From positions 1 to 59,429 of the forward strand of contig DASZYA010000029.1 in NCBI GenBank assembly GCA_035545675.1: a DNA stretch of 59,429 bases, in the 5' to 3' direction. Shown here piece after piece: positions 5,968 to 20,655 of this stretch (positions are counted from its first letter, which is position 1; the number at the start of each line of letters is the position of its first letter). A model generated the notes under the pieces. The model worked only from the letters and a program-made list of their open reading frames with translations, was not told where the DNA came from and made no database searches. A program made the position numbers and the translations under genes. The DNA is from Patescibacteria group bacterium (lineage in GTDB: Bacteria; Patescibacteriota; Microgenomatia; Levybacterales; GWA1-39-11).

Positions 5968-5974
5968 ACTAGGT

Positions 5975-5980
5975 ATTATA
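5975..5980 (-). promoter_or_regulatory. -10 box TATAAT 7 nt upstream of the trmH-family ATG (context TGATATATAAT)
   Basis: The minus strand reads TATAAT-acctagt-ATG. No SD is visible. Confidence 0.35.
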
Positions 5981-5999
5981 TATCAAAATGCTTATTCTT

Positions 6000-6157
6000 C
6001 CACTTTTGTGCCGACAAAAGTGGAGTAAAAACTTTCGTCATGCGTTACTCATGCTCTCAAATCTCATTCGTTTATCGGGGAACTTCACCCCTTCCGTATT
6101 CACGGAATTCCCCTGAACACTCAATCGATTTTCATGCATTCCGTACTAAAATGACGA
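6000..6157 (-). ncRNA. Unclassified structured RNA candidate, copy A (5' leader or free-standing sRNA)
   Basis: Outer stem 6035-6041/6151-6157. The 57-nt core 6067-6123 is 48/57 identical to 18650-18706. The hairpin 6093-6106 has a compensatory change relative to copy B. A trailing 10-bp hairpin lies at 6000-6023. Confidence 0.55.
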
Positions 6158-6196
6158 TTAAAATCTAAAAAAATCAATGGAAATTAAAAATTAACA

Positions 6197-13419: not shown

Positions 13420-14332
13420 TTTTGAAAAATCTATAATAAAGACCCTTTCTTATTCTGATATCTTTAGTTATCCATTAACTGCTTCTGAAATTAATAAATA
13501 CTATATGGGAAAACCAATTGATAAGAAGGATTTTAATAACACTCTCAAAGAAATGGTAGATAATTTATATATTCAGAAAAGAGGTAAATACTATTTTCTA
13601 AATGGAAGAGGAGATTTTGTAAATTTAAGAAGAAAAAGAGAAAGGATTGGTCACCACAAGCTTTTGTTTGCTAAAAAAATTGCTAATAAACTTTCTATTA
13701 TTCCAACAGTTAAATTAATTGGTTTGAGCGGAAGTTTATCTATGAACAACGCTGATAGGGGAGATGATATAGATTTTTTCATAATAACTTCAAAGAATTC
13801 TATTTGGATGACAAGACTTATTGTGACAATCTTTCTATTAATATTAAAAGTTAAAAGGTCTAGATATGATTCTTATGGTATGGATTTAATTTGTCCAAAT
13901 ATGTTTGTTGATGAATCAGATCTTTCCATGGAAGAAAATATTTTTATTGCTCATGAAATAGCCCAGCTTAAAGTCTTAGTAGATAAGGGTAGCTCATATA
14001 AAAGGTTTGTGGGGAGTAATCTTTGGGTTAAAAAGATCCTTCCAAATGTAAACATAGAAAAGGCTGAAGGTTTTAGAACTAATAATTCGTTGATTTTAAA
14101 AGTGCTAGATTATTTATTTTTTTCTTTGCAGTTTCTCTATATGAAGAGAAGAATTACCAATGAAACTGTAGGGCCAAAAATAGCTCGTTTTCACCCCCAA
14201 AATAAACGCGATTTTGTTACCGATTTATATGCCAAAAGATGCCGAAATTACCTCCAAAATTTGGCCAAATGTAAGAGAAATTTGAGCCCCAAAATACCCG
14301 ATTTAGCCTCGAATTTTACTCCAGGATATTGA
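13394..14332 (+). CDS. Pol-beta-superfamily nucleotidyltransferase-like hypothetical protein
   Basis: GLSGSLSMNNADRGDDIDFFII resembles the GS...DxD minimal NTase motif. Confidence 0.45.
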   Translation: MKAQDKVNNFEKSIIKTLSYSDIFSYPLTASEINKYYMGKPIDKKDFNNTLKEMVDNLYIQKRGKYYFLNGRGDFVNLRRKRERIGHHKLLFAKKIANKLSIIPTVKLIGLSGSLSMNNADRGDDIDFFIITSKNSIWMTRLIVTIFLLILKVKRSRYDSYGMDLICPNMFVDESDLSMEENIFIAHEIAQLKVLVDKGSSYKRFVGSNLWVKKILPNVNIEKAEGFRTNNSLILKVLDYLFFSLQFLYMKRRITNETVGPKIARFHPQNKRDFVTDLYAKRCRNYLQNLAKCKRNLSPKIPDLASNFTPGY

Positions 14333-14981: not shown

Positions 14982-17231
14982 ATGTTCTGGGCAGATCGAG
15001 TAGCAAAAGAAATAATTGATTCAGGAAAACACGAGCCATATTGGGTAGATGACATGTTTACTCCCTCTGGTTTTGCTCACGTGGGTTCATTAAGGGGTCC
15101 ATTGGTTCACGACATGGTTTATAGGGGTCTTGTTAAGGCAGGCCAAAAATCTAAATGGACATACATCATGAACGATTTTGATGTTATTGATGGTTTACCT
15201 CAGGAGTTAGAAAAAGATTTCAGCCAATATATGGGGGTTGTTTTAAGATTGGTTCCATCTCCGGAAAAAGGATTTGATAATTTTGCCGATTATTTTGCAA
15301 AAGACTTTCAGAAAGTATTAAGAGAGCTCGGTGTTGAGGCAGAATTTTTATCTTCTTTTGATATGTATAAGGCTGGAAAGTTTAATGATGTAATAAGACT
15401 TGCTTTAGATAATTCGGAGAAGATCCTTGATATTTACCAAAGGGTGTCAGGAAGTAAAAAAAGAGAGGCTGGTTGGCTTCCATTGCAAGTTATTTGTGAG
15501 AACTGTGGAAAATTAGGAACTACAAGGGTCCATGATTGGGATGGGGAAACAGTTGCTTATACATGTGAGAAGGCTATGGTTAAATGGGCAGAAGGATGCG
15601 GTCATACCGGAAGAATAAGTCCATTTGATGGTAATGGTAAACTCCCTTGGAAAGTGGATTGGCCAGCTCACTGGAAAGTGTTAGGAATAACAATAGAAGG
15701 AGCAGGAAAAGATCATTCTTCAGCCGGAGGTTCACGTGATATAGCAAGGGAACTCTGTAAAGAAGTTTTTGACTATCCAGATCCATTTAATATTCCATAC
15801 GAATTCTTCTTAATAGGTGGAAAGAAAATGTCTTCTTCAAAAGGTCTTGGTTTAAAAGGTAGAGATTTAACTAAACTTTTACCTCCAGAGGTTGGAAGAT
15901 TTTTATTTACTAGAACTGATTATAAAAAGGCAATTGAATTTGATCCAATGGGTACTATGGCTATCCCAATGCTTTTTGACGAATATCAAAAAGCCGCTGA
16001 GTCATATTTCTCAAAGACAGGAGATGATTTAGCTCGTGCATTTGAGTACTCCCACATAGGAGAGATTATGAAACCACCAAGTGTTCGTTTTTCTGTTTTG
16101 GCCCAATGGATACAGATGCCAAATATGGAAAATGAGATTAAAAAAGCGGGGGCAGAGTCGTGGGCAGATTATGCAAGAATTTGGATTGAGCAATTTGCTC
16201 CAGAATCTGAAAAGTTTCTAGTTCAGGATAATCTTCCCGATTCAGCCAGGAGCCTTTCAGATAAACAGAAAGAATATCTACAAAAAATAGTAGATTTGTT
16301 ACCCGTAAACGACGTTGAGGAATTCCAAACCAGAATTTATGAGATAGCAAGAGATCTAGATATTACCCCTAAGGAATCTTTTGGAGCAATATACTCTGTC
16401 TTAATTGGTAAAGATCATGGTCCAAAAGCTGCTTGGTTTATTTCATCTTTGGATCCTGAATTCATCAAGAAAAGATTTAAAGAGGCTTATGAAGCAGAGT
16501 ATGATAACAAAGTCCAAGATGCTAATTTGACTCGCTTTGATAATTCAAACATTTTTAGTATTGATAAAGAACTTGGTCAAAAATATCCATCAATTTCTGT
16601 AGGAATTGCAGTTATTAAAGGAGTAAATATTAAAAAAACAGATGAAAGACTTGAAAAAGAAAAAGAGGAGTTGCTAAAGACTCTTCAGAGTCTAACAACA
16701 GAACAGCTTGGGGAATATGAAGAAGTAAAAGACTATAGAAAGCTTTATAAAGAGATGGGTGTTGATTGGCATTCAAGGCGCCCGAGTCCTGAGGCGCTTC
16801 TCAGAAGAATAGCAACTAAAAAAGGTCTTTATACAGTAAATACATGTGTTGATGCGTACAATTTAGTAGTAATGAAAAATAGAATATCTGTTGGGGCTTT
16901 TGATTATGACAGCATAGCCTTTCCAACAGTAATTCGTTTTGCAAAAGAAGGAGAAAAAATATTATTACTCGGTGATCAAGAAGCGACTCCCTATACAGAA
17001 AAAGAAATTGCTTATTTTGATGAGAAGGGTGGGTACAATATGGACTTTAATTATAGAGACTCACAAAGAACAGCAGTCCAGCTTGATACTAAAAATATTC
17101 TTCTAAATGTTGATGGGATTTTTGGAATTAGTCCAGAAAAAGTGGAGGAAGTATTAAGACAAGCTTGTGACAAAATTATTGAATACTGTGGTGGAGAATT
17201 GTCTGAATTTGGTGTGGTAACTGCTTCTTAA
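14982..17231 (+). CDS. lysK: Class I lysyl-tRNA synthetase fused to a C-terminal B3/4 (PheT-like, COG3382-type) domain
   Basis: HIGH-type FAHVGSLRG and KMSKS-type KMSSSKG in the first ~520 aa. The last ~220 aa has RRPSPEALLRRI, VNTCVDAYNLV, GAFDYD and FNYRDSQRT, as in stand-alone B3/4 proteins. Confidence 0.85.
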   Translation: MFWADRVAKEIIDSGKHEPYWVDDMFTPSGFAHVGSLRGPLVHDMVYRGLVKAGQKSKWTYIMNDFDVIDGLPQELEKDFSQYMGVVLRLVPSPEKGFDNFADYFAKDFQKVLRELGVEAEFLSSFDMYKAGKFNDVIRLALDNSEKILDIYQRVSGSKKREAGWLPLQVICENCGKLGTTRVHDWDGETVAYTCEKAMVKWAEGCGHTGRISPFDGNGKLPWKVDWPAHWKVLGITIEGAGKDHSSAGGSRDIARELCKEVFDYPDPFNIPYEFFLIGGKKMSSSKGLGLKGRDLTKLLPPEVGRFLFTRTDYKKAIEFDPMGTMAIPMLFDEYQKAAESYFSKTGDDLARAFEYSHIGEIMKPPSVRFSVLAQWIQMPNMENEIKKAGAESWADYARIWIEQFAPESEKFLVQDNLPDSARSLSDKQKEYLQKIVDLLPVNDVEEFQTRIYEIARDLDITPKESFGAIYSVLIGKDHGPKAAWFISSLDPEFIKKRFKEAYEAEYDNKVQDANLTRFDNSNIFSIDKELGQKYPSISVGIAVIKGVNIKKTDERLEKEKEELLKTLQSLTTEQLGEYEEVKDYRKLYKEMGVDWHSRRPSPEALLRRIATKKGLYTVNTCVDAYNLVVMKNRISVGAFDYDSIAFPTVIRFAKEGEKILLLGDQEATPYTEKEIAYFDEKGGYNMDFNYRDSQRTAVQLDTKNILLNVDGIFGISPEKVEEVLRQACDKIIEYCGGELSEFGVVTAS

Positions 17232-17725
17232 AAAATAGAGTTAATTTTTTCCGCTGTTTTTTCTGCGGATAAGTTTGTGTTATCAATCTTCTCATCATAG
17301 TTTTCAAATTTACTTTGTTCTTCGTGCAGTGAAATGAGTCTCTCTTCTTGTAGATTGTAGCTCCTATTACTATTTCTTTTTTTAACTTCATCAAGTGTTG
17401 GAAAAAGTAAAACTATTTTTGGTTTAAATTCTTTTAAACCGTCTTTGTAAATCCTGCTTGTTTCTTTTGTTACTACATCAAGAATTACACAGTCAAATCC
17501 CTCTTCTATAAAATTCTTTGCTAGTCCTACTGCGTTTTTAGCTCCAAGTCTGGCTTGTTTTTGACCGGGCTCTCCATACCAAGGTGCAATATGGGGTTTT
17601 ATTGCCATGTGTCTTACGTCATCTACGTCAATAACTGCACATTTATGGCGGAGTTGTGCGAGTATATGACCAACTGTATTTTTACCTGCTCCCGCAGGTC
17701 CCGTTAGAATTATTATTTTTCCCAT
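17228..17725 (-). CDS. P-loop kinase-like ATPase (AAA_33/zeta-toxin-like fold)
   Basis: Walker A GPAGAGKNT near the N-terminus; 165 aa. Confidence 0.55.
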   Translation of the reverse strand: MGKIIILTGPAGAGKNTVGHILAQLRHKCAVIDVDDVRHMAIKPHIAPWYGEPGQKQARLGAKNAVGLAKNFIEEGFDCVILDVVTKETSRIYKDGLKEFKPKIVLLFPTLDEVKKRNSNRSYNLQEERLISLHEEQSKFENYDEKIDNTNLSAEKTAEKINSIF

Positions 17726-18576
17726 CTTGAGTAGATTGCGGTTGGAAGAATTCTTTCATTTTTCTGCTTTATTCCTAGCTCTCCATATTCTACTTTACCT
17801 TTTAGCTTCCTTGTCGCGTCAGATAATAGATTTCCAAGAGTAATTGATGATATTGGTACAGCATAGGCTGTAGTTAATATAAATAGTGGATCATCTGTTA
17901 GGATCTGGCGGCAATAATCTAATAATTCAGGAAAATGTTCTTCAAATTTCCAAACTTCACCTTGAGCTCCTCTTCCATATTTTGGTGGGTCCATAATGAT
18001 TGCGTCGTATCGAGAGTTTCTTCTTACTTCTCTTTTTACAAATTTCATTGCATCTTCTGGTATCCAGCGAATAGGTTTTTGCTCTAGTCCAGACATTCTC
18101 TGGTTGTCGCGCGCCCAAGTAATTGCTGGTTTTGAAGCATCAACATGTACTACGTTTGCTCCGGCGTTTGATGCGGCAAGGGTTGCAGCTCCTGTATATG
18201 TAAAAAGGCTAAGAACGTTTGGTTTTCTGCCAGATTCTTTTATTTTTTGACTAATCCAGGCCCATTGGCTTGATTGATCAGGAAAAACTCCAACATGGCC
18301 AAATGAGGTAAGTCTAAGGTCAAATTTTAGGTTTTCAAAGCCAATTGGCCAAGTCTGTGGTATTTGGTTTTTGAATTCCCAGTTGCCTCCTTTATCGCTA
18401 GTGCGCCTAAAAACAGCATCTGCTTTTTGCCAGGTTGCTTCATCTTCACTTTGATTCCAAATTGCTTGGGTTTCAACGCGGTTTAGAATGTATTTTCCAA
18501 AACGTTCGAGTTTTCTCCCGTTTCCACTGTCAAGCAGTTCGTATTCACTCCAATTTGGTGTAATTATATTAATCAT
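17713..18576 (-). CDS. Class I SAM-dependent rRNA methyltransferase (RlmI/RlmK-like)
   Basis: YELLDSGNGRKLERFG, VLSLFTYTGAATLAA, VHVDASK and IIMDPPKYG. I prefer ATG 18576 because the track's TTG start at 18630 lies inside RNA copy B. Confidence 0.8.
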   Translation of the reverse strand: MINIITPNWSEYELLDSGNGRKLERFGKYILNRVETQAIWNQSEDEATWQKADAVFRRTSDKGGNWEFKNQIPQTWPIGFENLKFDLRLTSFGHVGVFPDQSSQWAWISQKIKESGRKPNVLSLFTYTGAATLAASNAGANVVHVDASKPAITWARDNQRMSGLEQKPIRWIPEDAMKFVKREVRRNSRYDAIIMDPPKYGRGAQGEVWKFEEHFPELLDYCRQILTDDPLFILTTAYAVPISSITLGNLLSDATRKLKGKVEYGELGIKQKNERILPTAIYSRWEK

Positions 18577-18585
18577 ATTTTCTTT

Positions 18586-18742
18586 GTACTTTTGAGCCGC
18601 CAAAAGTACCAAAAGCTCTTTTGCGTGCAATCCGGACTAATTTTATTTCTTCGCTTATCGGGTGATTTCACCCCCTCCGAATTCTCGGAATCCCCCTGAA
18701 CGCTCACGTATAAAATCTTAACGTCCTCTGTTGCACATGCAA
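18586..18742 (-). ncRNA. Unclassified structured RNA candidate, copy B
   Basis: Outer stem 18621-18630/18731-18742, core 18650-18706, hairpin 18676-18689, trailing 9-bp hairpin 18586-18609. Confidence 0.55.
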
Positions 18743-18762
18743 AAATAAGGAAGCTAGCTTGT

Positions 18763-18791
18763 ATTATCCTAGAATTTCACTTCTGAAGCAA
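18763..18791 (-). promoter_or_regulatory. Sigma70-like promoter TTGCTT-17-GATAAT upstream of RNA copy B
   Basis: Read on the minus strand. The -10 box ends about 20 nt before the outer stem. Confidence 0.4.
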
Positions 18792-18803
18792 GTTTGATAT
18801 ACT

Positions 18804-19364
18804 TTGGGCGTGGATAAGATTTATCTTGCAACTACAAACAAAGGGAAGCTGAAAGAACTCCAGGCAATTATTCATGTTCCCATAGAGCCAGTTGAGCTTG
18901 ATATAGATGAGGTGCAGAGTATGGATTTGGAGTACATCGCACTTAAGAAGGTTGAAGAAGCTTTTAGACAAGTTAAGAACCCCGTAATAGTGGATGATGT
19001 TGGGTTTTATCTTTCTGCATGGAACGGATTTCCCGGACCGTTCACCAAGTATCTGGCAGAAACAATTACTTATGAAGGTTTACTTGCTGTTTTAGGAGAT
19101 GAGGAGAATAGGAAAGTAAAAGTTTTAACCGCAATTGGATATCATGATGGTAAAACTCCTCATATATTTATGGGTGAATCAACTGGCGTTATTGTTCATG
19201 AAAAACGGGGAGATAAGGGATTTGGATTTGATCCAATAATTATTCCAGATGGTTATGATAAAACATTTGCAGAGCTTGATGAGGAGCTTAAAAATAAAAT
19301 ATCGTCAAGAGGTCTAGCGCTTCATAAGTTCAAAAAGTTTCTAGATGGTCAAAAAGCTACATAA
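18804..19364 (+). CDS. rdgB: Non-canonical purine NTP pyrophosphatase (RdgB/HAM1)
   Basis: IYLATTNKGKLKEL, FPGPFTKY and GFGFDPI. The start may be GTG 18810. Confidence 0.85.
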   Translation: MGVDKIYLATTNKGKLKELQAIIHVPIEPVELDIDEVQSMDLEYIALKKVEEAFRQVKNPVIVDDVGFYLSAWNGFPGPFTKYLAETITYEGLLAVLGDEENRKVKVLTAIGYHDGKTPHIFMGESTGVIVHEKRGDKGFGFDPIIIPDGYDKTFAELDEELKNKISSRGLALHKFKKFLDGQKAT

Positions 19365-19383
19365 ACGATATAATATGCTAGAA

Positions 19384-19415
19384 AACTCGTTAACTCTTTA
19401 ACGCGTTAATAAAAA
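19384..19415 (+). repeat. Octamer array AACTCGTT AACTCTTT AACGCGTT AATAAAAA in the serS 5' region
   Basis: Period 8, x4, ending 1 nt before ATG 19417. TATAAT at 19369-19374 lies upstream. Confidence 0.6.
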
Positions 19416-19416
19416 T

Positions 19417-20655
19417 ATGCTTGATCTTAAATTTATTCGTGAGAATCCTGAAAAAGTGGCAGAAGGCGCTGCTTCAAAAAATATTGAGGTACCAGTAGAA
19501 GAAATATTAAGACTAGATGAAGAAGTTCGTGCCTTATCTCGTCAACTCCAAGAATTATATACAGAGCGTAATCGCGCTGCAAAAGAACGTGATATAGAGG
19601 GTGGAAAAGAAATAAAAGCGGAAGTTGGAAGTCTTGAAGCAAGGCTAAAAGAATTAGAAGAAAAGCTTAAAAATTATCTTTATGCAATTCCAAATATGCC
19701 AGCAGCGGATGTTAAAGTCGGAAAGAACGAGGAAGAGAATGAAGTAGTAAAAACGGTTGGAGATATTCCTAATTTTGATTTTAAACCTCGTGACCATGTA
19801 GAGCTTGGCCAAATTCTAGATATTATTGATATAGATCGTGCTGCAAAAGTAGCGGGTAGCAGATTCACATACCTTAAGAATGAAGGTGTTTTGTTAGAAT
19901 TTGCTTTGATTCAATTTGCTTTAAATACCTTAATGCATGATGGTTTTACTCCAGTTATTCCTCCAGAAATTATAAAAACAGAAGTTATGAAAAGAGTTGG
20001 CTACATGGAGCACGGAGGAGCTGAGGATATGTTTCATATAGAAAAAGATGGTCTTACCCTTATTGGTACGGGAGAACATTCAACAGTTGCCATGCACATG
20101 GATGAGACCTTTCTAGAGCGCGATTTACCAAAAAGATACGTTGCTTTCTCATCTTCTTTCAGAAGAGAGGCTGGATCTTACGGTAAAGATACAAGAGGAA
20201 TCCTACGTGTTCATCAGTTTGATAAAGTGGAACTCGTTTCTTATGTTGCTCCGGAGCAGGATGAGGCCGAGCAAAAACATTTATTGGCAATTGAAGAGAA
20301 GTTCTTCAATGATCTTAAAATCCCATACCAGGTTGTTAAAATGTGTACGGGTGATTTGGGATTTGTCCAAGCAAGAAAGTTTGATATAGAAGCATGGATT
20401 CCAACGCAGAACAAATATCGCGAAATGACATCAGCATCAACGCTTACTGATTTTCAAGCAAGAAATCTTAATATTAAATTCGCTCGCGGAGCAGAAAAAA
20501 GCTTTGTTCACACTCTAAATGCAACTGGCTTTGCAATTGGCAGAACATTAATTGCAATACTTGAGAATTATCAACAAGAAGATGGTAGTGTTGTTGTTCC
20601 AGAGGTGTTAAGAAAGTATATAAACCTTGATGTAATTTCTCCAAAACGCAATTAA
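19417..20655 (+). CDS. serS: Seryl-tRNA synthetase
   Basis: N-terminal coiled coil plus class II motifs FRREAGSYGKDTRGILRVHQF and GFAIGRTLIAILENYQ. Confidence 0.95.
   Translation: MLDLKFIRENPEKVAEGAASKNIEVPVEEILRLDEEVRALSRQLQELYTERNRAAKERDIEGGKEIKAEVGSLEARLKELEEKLKNYLYAIPNMPAADVKVGKNEEENEVVKTVGDIPNFDFKPRDHVELGQILDIIDIDRAAKVAGSRFTYLKNEGVLLEFALIQFALNTLMHDGFTPVIPPEIIKTEVMKRVGYMEHGGAEDMFHIEKDGLTLIGTGEHSTVAMHMDETFLERDLPKRYVAFSSSFRREAGSYGKDTRGILRVHQFDKVELVSYVAPEQDEAEQKHLLAIEEKFFNDLKIPYQVVKMCTGDLGFVQARKFDIEAWIPTQNKYREMTSASTLTDFQARNLNIKFARGAEKSFVHTLNATGFAIGRTLIAILENYQQEDGSVVVPEVLRKYINLDVISPKRN

Follow-up and report, generated by a model that had tools for sequence, protein, structure and literature searches.

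On comparison with its homologues, the segment at 18577-18756 on the minus strand of the window (the whole 59,429-nucleotide stretch of DNA analysed here) is a real and previously unclassified folded RNA of about 170 nt that belongs to Levybacteria-like candidate-phyla bacteria. The window contains one structured RNA in two copies: copy B, the segment just named, and copy A at 5994-6161 (-), which has arms of a different type, the same core and the same trailing hairpin, and lies between topA and a SpoU-family methylase gene. An earlier note on this DNA had described copy B as an unclassified structured RNA and as the second copy of a motif at 6000-6157, and both statements are borne out by the absence of an Rfam match, by covariation and by covariance-model matches. 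The reading preferred here, which is held with roughly even confidence, is that of a stand-alone family of small RNAs, trans-acting or processed, whose members relocate from one intergenic site to another; copy B would be one of its two paralogues in the window. The function of the RNA itself would most likely be exerted in trans, a point that is argued by exclusion. Candidate Phyla Radiation organisms have tiny genomes and few known regulators and, to our knowledge, hardly any small RNA, regulatory or structural, has been reported from them.

Members of the RNA family and support for a conserved fold

The organism of the window is placed near Candidatus Levybacteria by the names on its protein homologues. 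The core pattern shared by the two copies occurs exactly twice in the window with zero occurrences expected (100 shuffles), and copy A has both the core GTTCAGGGGRATTCCNNGNATNNGGARGGGGTGAARTYMCCCGATWA and the trailing hairpin in common with copy B. A candidate third copy at 14190-14198 (GGGGGTGAA) lies within coding sequence and was set aside as a chance match. A pattern scan of the GTDB species genomes produced 28 loci, three of which are true homologues: L012 from a Levyibacteriota genome, L024 from a Patescibacteria genome, and L002. From the metagenome scan came eleven more loci, corresponding to ten distinct ones (L124, L127, L130, L133, L135, L140, L143, L147, L158 and L160; L154 equals L127). 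Beyond the window pair there are thirteen further full-length copies, in Patescibacteria or Levybacteria-like contigs. A locus from Ruminococcus (L011) scored 28.8 bits and was judged to be a chance or pattern-driven match.

The copy number is low, with two copies in the 59-kb window, one pattern match in a 720-kb contig (L154) and one copy per genome in the GTDB scan. Since the scan of the genome collection demanded GTTCAGGGG and passed over the more common ATTCAGGGG type, both the distribution and the number of copies are underestimated and are to be taken as lower bounds. The family has so far been found only in Levybacteria-like Patescibacteria, in a sample that is small and phylogenetically narrow. 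The phage, plasmid and IMG/VR collections contained no family members, and literature searches by topic and by sequence string returned nothing relevant to the RNA.

The contig of L002 (CAZIAP010000005.1) is labelled as a Gammaproteobacteria MAG. It has 37% G+C, bears a type-B copy of the RNA and shows the gene order RNase Y-HU-miaA, which is that of Levybacteria-like relatives. The contig is probably mis-binned or misclassified.

A covariance model was built from 15 sequences, comprising the 13 homologues and the two window copies. The model recovers all 15 members at full length with scores of 108-181 bits. Run against the window with filters off, it identified exactly copies A and B with 145 and 140 bits, respectively, and the next best match scored 13 bits. 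The full-length match to copy B spans 18580-18748 (-) and model positions 1-169 with a score of 140.2 bits. A search of the whole window against the 4227 families of Rfam 15 gave no match at the gathering score. At E<=10, no match was obtained for the surroundings of copy B (18500-18850), and permissive E-values returned only junk with E>1 for copy A. Neither the variant locus of L172 described below nor the weak look-alikes L011, L144 and L157 matched an Rfam family. The same permissive mode recovers the divergent RNase P RNA of the lineage at E = 6e-22.

The folding energy of the single sequences is modestly unusual relative to shuffled sequence (copy B, z = -2.1; copy A, z = -3.1), so the case rests on the comparison with homologues. 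From the 15 sequences, RNAalifold predicted 40 pairs, 22 of which have compensatory changes on both sides; many of the homologues are closely related and the effective sequence number is 2.07. In this alignment 95.1% of cells are paired versus 47-57% when the partners are slid by 1-3 columns, and none of 500 shuffles reached the observed value on any of five measures. Within pairs, G·U was counted 39 times and A·C 8 times, an excess that fixes the strand and assigns the structure to RNA of the minus strand of the window. What would be expected of a stand-alone structured small RNA family, namely a conserved secondary structure with compensatory changes on one strand only, is what was found. 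The invariance of the core is partly by construction because about 21 core nucleotides were demanded by the retrieval patterns; core positions outside those patterns (AUUCC, GGA, AU) are likewise invariant.

Architecture of the rod, the core and the 3' hairpin

Taken from the alignment, the RNA is a self-contained module that may be divided into an imperfect rod, a G-rich core that is apical and near-invariant, and a 3' hairpin that is AU-rich and conserved. The elements of copy B that the earlier note had listed were all recovered on the minus strand: an outer stem of 18742-18731 with 18630-18621, a core at 18706-18650, a hairpin at 18689-18676, and a trailing hairpin at 18609-18586 that ends 9 nt before ATG 18576.

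The rod comes with two types of arms, A and B, while L012 has a third kind in the form of a long perfect rod. Type A is found in copy A, in L024 and in the majority of the metagenome copies, and is made of UCGCC/GGCGA and GAAUGCAUGA/GAAAGCAUGA. Type B is found in copy B, L135 and L002, and combines an outer stem with the helices GGAC/GUCC and GAUUUUA/UAAAAUU. The outer stem of copy B, as identified from sequence and folding, pairs a 5' arm UUGCAUGUGCAA (18731-18742 (-)) with a 3' arm UUGCACGCAA (18621-18630 (-)); the arms of L135 and L002 are different but self-complementary. The 5' strands of the two middle helices occupy 18711-18726 (-), with GGAC at 18726-18723, GAUUUUA at 18717-18711 and a GUUAA loop between them, and the 3' strands occupy 18634-18645 (-), with UAAAAUU at 18645-18639 and GUCC at 18637-18634. 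Both helices are supported by covariation. The first reads GGAC/GUCC, GGGC/GCCC and GAGC/GCUC across the three sequences, and the second reads GAUUUUA/UAAAAUU versus AAUUUUG/CAAAAUU. The AAAGGACGTTAAG segment had been considered as a promoter box and was rejected in favor of an RNA helix, Pb, since GGAC, GGGC and GAGC covary with their 3' partners.

Copy B is 57% identical to copy A overall (39% in the arms), compared to 64-66% identity with the type-B copies of other organisms. Being closer to foreign type-B RNAs than to the other copy in its own window, copy B indicates that types A and B are old paralogues. Near-identical type-A copies (84-93% identity) were found in six separate gene contexts. 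A further family member, with a score of 60 bits, is present at L172 16338-16516 (+), flanked by the RNase P RNA gene and by miaA, which is convergent. The basal arms CCGCC/GGCGG and GAAUGCAUGAGAAA/UGAAAGCAUGAG are retained along with the trailing hairpin, and an entirely different apical domain replaces the G-rich core.

The core opens with the 5' side of a tandem G·A motif and a 2-bp helix P4 (U-GA-GC) at 18702-18706 (-), for which the partner strand is 18650-18654. The P4 pairs 68-123 and 69-122 covary (CG in 6, UA in 6 and UG in 3). A first G-run plus AU (GGGGGAU) follows at 18690-18696 (-) and serves as the 5' strand of helix P5 in one of two predicted states; a compensatory change from G-C to A-U occurs in alignment columns 80/112. 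Next is the hairpin P6 (UCCGA-GAAU-UCGGA) at 18676-18689 (-), which covaries strongly: two-sided changes affect pair 86-97 in 6/15 sequences and pair 87-96 in 7/15. The hairpin is followed by an invariant G-rich strand, GGGGGUGAA, at 18667-18675 (-), and by a single C-run, AUCACCC, at 18660-18666 (-) that is able to pair with either G-run and gives rise to the two-state folding.

In state 1, G-run 1 plus AU pairs with AUC(C/A)CCC over 7 bp, which encloses P6 and leaves GGGGGUGAA unpaired. In state 2, G-run 2 forms a hairpin with the same C-run, and the pairing GGGUG/CACCC is perfect in the six sequences that have CACCC, copy B included. The calculated energies for copy B are -13.6 kcal/mol for state 1 and -14.9 kcal/mol for state 2. 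Throughout the family the two core states are 1.3-3.3 kcal/mol apart in the predicted folds, with type B favoring state 2 and type A favoring state 1. From these models, the RNA likely functions through its invariant G-rich strand, which is exposed on a core with two states.

Other readings of the core were rejected. A small ORF (GUG AAA UCN CCC... after a GGAGG-like sequence) would encode a peptide with a length anywhere from 5 to 33 codons; the spacing to its GUG is 2 nt, and the helices covary (sequences read by eye). The G-rich strand might have paired with the 3' end of 16S rRNA, or mimicked its 690 loop or parts of 23S rRNA, but the presumed resemblance is not conserved in type A (GGAAGG). 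Similarity of GGUGAAAUUCC to an FMN or cobalamin riboswitch was accompanied by no model match.

A linker, GAGCUUUUG, joins the core to the AU-rich 3' hairpin. In copy B, this module spans 18579-18614 (-), where a core stem-loop at 18609-18586 is extended by UUUU/AAAG pairs. The helix covaries between GUACUUUUG/CAAAAGUAC and CUUCUUUUC/GAAAAGAAG, with changes in 8/14 of its pairs. The hairpin does not resemble an intrinsic (Rho-independent) terminator, as the stem is AU-rich and there is no U-tract. It is flanked by U's on the 5' side and A's on the 3' side, so no intrinsic terminator is formed on either strand, and a scan of 17500-19500 found no terminator-like site. The possibility of a generic repeat was dismissed since the hairpin is present in the window only beside the two RNA copies. 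An outward promoter within the hairpin (TTGGTA-18-TACAAA-6/7-ATG) is possible for copy B and L158; such a promoter would make no sense where the downstream gene is convergent, and it is weak in the second variant of the hairpin. A start codon lies 3-8 nt after the RNA in copy B, L133 and L127, and 3-16 nt from the RNA end in 5 of about 7 co-directional cases. With start codons this close, the 3' module could influence downstream expression.

Insertion sites and genomic context

The gene that follows copy B (17713-18576 (-)) encodes a SAM-dependent, RlmI-like methyltransferase of 287 amino acids (PF10672). Its start at ATG 18576, which the earlier note had favored, agrees with the homologues, which are about 285-295 amino acids long and all begin with M-I/V-N-I; when their N-termini were compared, none covered the 18 residues that would be added by the TTG start. 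The promoter that the same note had proposed (TTGCTT-17-GATAAT, 18791-18763) is also corroborated, as five relatives keep TTGAWT-17-GATAAT at the same place. Its -35 box, TTGCTT at 18786-18791 (-), belongs to the ancestral methyltransferase promoter and is represented by TTGATT, TTGAAT or TTGATC at the homologous position in relatives. The -10 box, GATAAT at 18763-18768 (-), is invariant in L169, L170, L202, L203 and L205, where it is found 6 nt upstream of the methyltransferase ATG.

The relatives in question (L168/L169, L170, L202/L203 and L205/L206) have a methyltransferase with 73-83% identity and are collinear with the window in the order SecA-SerRS-Ham1-methyltransferase-LysRS-GreA...TsaD-TopA. 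In the five syntenic relatives, the spacer between Ham1 and the methyltransferase gene is only 38-55 bp long, reads TTGAWT-17-GATAAT-6 nt-ATG, and lacks the RNA. The methyltransferase gene in these five relatives is, on its promoter spacing, leaderless. In the window, the corresponding order is TTGCTT-17-GATAAT, ACAAGC, 180 nt of RNA (18756-18577) and ATG. Copy B thus corresponds to a unit of 180 nt (18577-18756 (-)) that is extra with respect to the five relatives and is situated between the -10 box (plus 6 nt) and the ATG. The insertion is precise, with promoter and ORF undamaged. Read from this alignment of loci, copy B is a recent insertion between the methyltransferase promoter and start codon, and not a methyltransferase-specific switch. 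The junctions of both copies showed no target-site duplication.

At L158 5005-5013, compared with window 18576-18568, the similarity to copy B runs past the trailing hairpin into TATGAT(A/T)AA, which in the window is the native start of the methyltransferase gene. This sequence may represent microhomology at the insertion junction. Genes in the lineage appear to lack a leader, with GATAAT or TATAAT 6-7 nt before the ATG and no Shine-Dalgarno sequence, as at window 18757-18791 (-) and 5968-5993 (-), L169 3230-3273, L170 4886-4921, L202 3965-4000 and L205 715-750. The neighborhood also contains a second indel. A gene for a P-loop kinase-like protein of 165 amino acids (AAA_18/AAA_33; window 17228-17725 (-)) lies between the methyltransferase and LysRS genes and is absent in L168/L169, where those two genes abut. 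The LysRS gene itself (window 14982-17231 (+)) encodes a class I lysyl-tRNA synthetase with a B3_4 (tRNA-binding) domain fused at its C-terminus, 749 amino acids in total; the enzyme of L170 has a 498-amino-acid form that is followed by a separate small ORF.

The locus of copy A presents a similar picture. Copy A precedes the SpoU methylase gene, which has its own TATAAT 7 nt before the ATG. The spacer between topA and spoU is 0-26 bp in L174, L175/176 and L177, and contains no RNA. The closest relative, L172/L173, has a SpoU protein with 88% identity and keeps only the 3' third of copy A. By this comparison copy A is, like copy B, a lineage-specific insertion. The decayed copy (L172 9900-9974 (+) and L173 1155-1229) consists of the 3' arm and the trailing hairpin only and sits between topA and spoU; its hairpin and the subsequent TTGATATATAAT-7 nt-ATG are nearly identical to those of the window. 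The genome of L169/L172 holds an intact type-A copy elsewhere (L024).

Across the loci, the occurrence of the RNA is independent of the flanking genes, and no protein gene was found to co-occur with the family. The downstream gene is convergent in at least seven loci (L002, L024, L135, L143, L147, L160 and L172), and in four of these the convergent stop codon is -1 to 2 nt from the RNA end. The convergent genes include miaA (L002 and L172), dgkA of the diacylglycerol-kinase family (L024), a phosphoribosyltransferase-like gene (L135) and nadE, encoding NAD synthase (L147). Co-directional neighbors are mutually unrelated and include two methyltransferases, an FNR-like reductase and membrane proteins.

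Some loci are composite (L133 11523-11570 (-); L143 4130-4190 and 4364-4420; L158 4951-5010). In these, a complete type-A unit is flanked by matches to the 5' arm of type-B copy B, including the AAAGGACGTTAAG box, and to the 3' linker of copy B together with a second, orphan trailing hairpin. From their sequences, the composite loci look like nested elements, with a type-A unit inside type-B remnants.

Function and alternative readings

With respect to a stand-alone RNA that acts in trans or is processed, the following course may be proposed for copy B. The captured methyltransferase promoter would drive transcription of the RNA, as a leader of 180 nt. Having no U-tract, the trailing hairpin would terminate inefficiently and the methyltransferase would still be made by read-through, as is suggested by the intact and conserved ORF together with the hairpin that lacks a U-tract. 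The mature RNA would probably be released or stabilized by processing at the long AU-rich hairpin. A partner, either a protein or a C/U-rich RNA, would then recognize the exposed invariant GGGGGUGAA strand in trans, with exposure set by the choice between the two near-isoenergetic folds of the core. For the methyltransferase, any effect would be a by-product of the landing site.

Small RNAs that stand alone and are built from riboswitch-like sensors are known, among them SreA/SreB of Listeria and the B12-controlled Rli55/EutX. Like these, the present family has a conserved sensor-like core, alternative folds and, in some cases, no co-directional gene after it, and either action in trans or control over read-through into neighboring genes, sense or antisense, would be conceivable. 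Unlike these, it has no recognizable aptamer class or terminator-type expression platform. A second point of comparison is provided by orphan structured noncoding RNA motifs such as the raiA entry of Rfam, which were found by comparative genomics and for which a function was not deduced. The family shares with the raiA class a length of 100-200 nt, covarying helices around highly conserved unpaired nucleotides, restriction to one lineage and a function that is not deducible from neighboring genes. It differs in matching none of the 4227 Rfam models and coming from candidate-phyla (Patescibacteria) genomes, in its modularity (interchangeable arm types and a separate 3' hairpin), and in a position that varies between close relatives. 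A covariation-supported family with a near-invariant, two-state core would constitute a new orphan class for which ligand binding, protein binding and self-cleavage are possible activities.

A rather unlikely alternative, and the one that survives best, is a selfish or mobile structured element that spreads between intergenic sites at the DNA or RNA level and has no host function. The rod and the 3' hairpin would then be kept to make insertions harmless, through processing or read-through, or for mobilization. Much of the comparative context can be read in this way. Both window copies are insertions with respect to close relatives, one of which has a decayed copy, and this presence/absence polymorphism, like the composite loci, fits a selfish element as well as it fits a useful gene. 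Type-A copies of 84-93% identity are scattered over six gene contexts, composite loci enclose a complete type-A unit within type-B remnants, copy B was inserted precisely with promoter and ORF intact, and there is possible microhomology (ATGATWAA) at the 3' junction. The hallmarks of a transposon-derived repeat or MITE, however, are not seen: target-site duplication is lacking, there are no conserved terminal inverted repeats since the arms differ between copies and covary, and copies are not numerous. No transposase, reverse transcriptase or recombinase is nearby, and members are absent from the phage, plasmid and IMG/VR collections. The two old paralogue types and the near-invariant core argue instead for purifying selection on a function.

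The same balance is found when the family is set beside small dispersed structured repeats that are co-transcribed with their neighbors, such as ERIC of enterobacteria, Correia/NEMIS of Neisseria and bcr1 of the Bacillus cereus group. The likeness lies in rod-forming intergenic insertions about 100-200 bp long, in presence/absence polymorphism, and in insertion into leaders or operon spacers without gene disruption. The difference lies in a very low copy number, no conserved terminal inverted repeats, no target duplication, a near-invariant apical core and two old paralogue types across organisms.

Mobility and regulation may also be combined. In this quite improbable version, the RNA would be a mobile module of candidate-phyla bacteria in which a bistable G-rich core, as a new ligand sensor or self-processing ribozyme, is mounted on a rod with a portable 3' hairpin. 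The targets of the module would be operon spacers and the sites where transcription of leaderless genes begins, and constitutive leaderless genes would be turned into leadered and potentially regulated ones. The insertion polymorphism also amounts to a natural experiment. Relatives have this housekeeping methyltransferase gene in leaderless form and the window has it with a 180-nt structured leader, which lets one ask how leaderless genes tolerate or exploit acquired leaders.

Very doubtful, and largely refuted by context, is a cis-acting riboswitch or leader that senses a metabolite (e.g. SAM or SAH) and gates the downstream methyltransferase by means of the trailing hairpin. The earlier note had suggested that the trailing hairpin could gate translation initiation, and there were grounds for a functional link to the methyltransferases: both window copies precede genes of SAM-dependent RNA methyltransferases, the core is highly conserved and bistable with aptamer-like alternative folds, and the hairpin ends 9 nt before the ATG. 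The link is not supported, as relatives with the same gene order are leaderless and lack the RNA (orthologous methyltransferase genes in five relatives and SpoU genes in four), and the RNA elsewhere precedes convergent genes, in at least seven loci, or functionally unrelated ones. A riboswitch would be expected upstream of co-directional genes of one functional class, which is not the distribution observed. The spoU gene that follows copy A is served by a separate TATAAT, 7 nt ahead of its start codon, and no Rfam riboswitch was matched. Nor was an expression platform identified, in that there is no terminator U-tract, the sequence after the hairpin is A-rich, and no Shine-Dalgarno sequence precedes ATG 18576. 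The proposal that the trailing hairpin gates translation lacks specific support: the hairpin is constant whatever lies downstream, and there is no ribosome-binding site to mask. It adjoins the ATG because of the insertion, and this adjacency does not argue for a translation gate. The case is also a caution, as two copies before two methyltransferase genes resembled a riboswitch until the comparative context showed the association to be accidental.

Still less probable is a new self-processing RNA, either a self-cleaving ribozyme class or a dedicated RNase substrate, in which the core would be catalytic or serve for recognition and cleavage would free the flanking transcripts. A compact, near-invariant core flanked by freely covarying helices is consistent with this idea, as are the scattered, non-syntenic contexts and the tolerance of the RNA inside transcription units (the leader position of copy B, and copy A between the formerly adjacent topA and spoU). 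Moreover, there is no terminator, and ends must come from cleavage. Against it, the RNA has no similarity to the known ribozyme families of Rfam, a cleavage site is not inferable from the sequence, and the member at L172 16338-16516 keeps the arms and 3' hairpin with a different apical domain, from which the core is not indispensable to the scaffold.

The weakest alternative, a universal housekeeping RNA (6S RNA, SRP RNA or a Y-like RNA) so divergent that the Rfam models miss it, draws on the rod-like shape, on the presence of two paralogues (6S RNA has two in Bacillus) and on an RNase P RNA in this lineage that itself falls below the gathering threshold (71.9 bits versus a cut-off of 100), and it is very hard to reconcile with the absence of any match at E<=10, in a mode that detected the RNase P RNA at E = 6e-22, or with absence at equivalent sites in close relatives, copy loss and decay, which are unexpected for an essential RNA. 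The 6S, SRP and bacterial Y RNAs are stable, protein-binding small RNAs, and the family resembles them in its rod shape, in conserved loops on variable helices, and in the possibility of paralogues (6S and Y). It differs in having no model match or defining motifs and in not being conserved at orthologous sites. For SRP RNA, no domain IV motif is present. For 6S RNA, there is no match to RF00013 at E<=10, the locus is not conserved, and a large central bubble flanked by long helices is missing; the largest internal loop adjoins a 5-bp basal helix in type A, and type B has none.

The searches also brought out two points on Rfam annotation in these genomes. The RNase P RNA of the lineage, which scores 71.9 bits against RF00010 (gathering score 100) at L172 15883-16252 (-), is also present at about 15740-16080 in L174 and about 15530-15950 in L177. 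Because it falls below the gathering score, standard Rfam annotation misses the RNase P RNA in these genomes. In L174, a match to RF03531 ('C. difficile sRNA included into helicase gene') was obtained just above the gathering score at 14156-14254 (+). The match lies inside a UvrD/PcrA-like helicase gene and probably reflects conserved coding sequence, not RNA.
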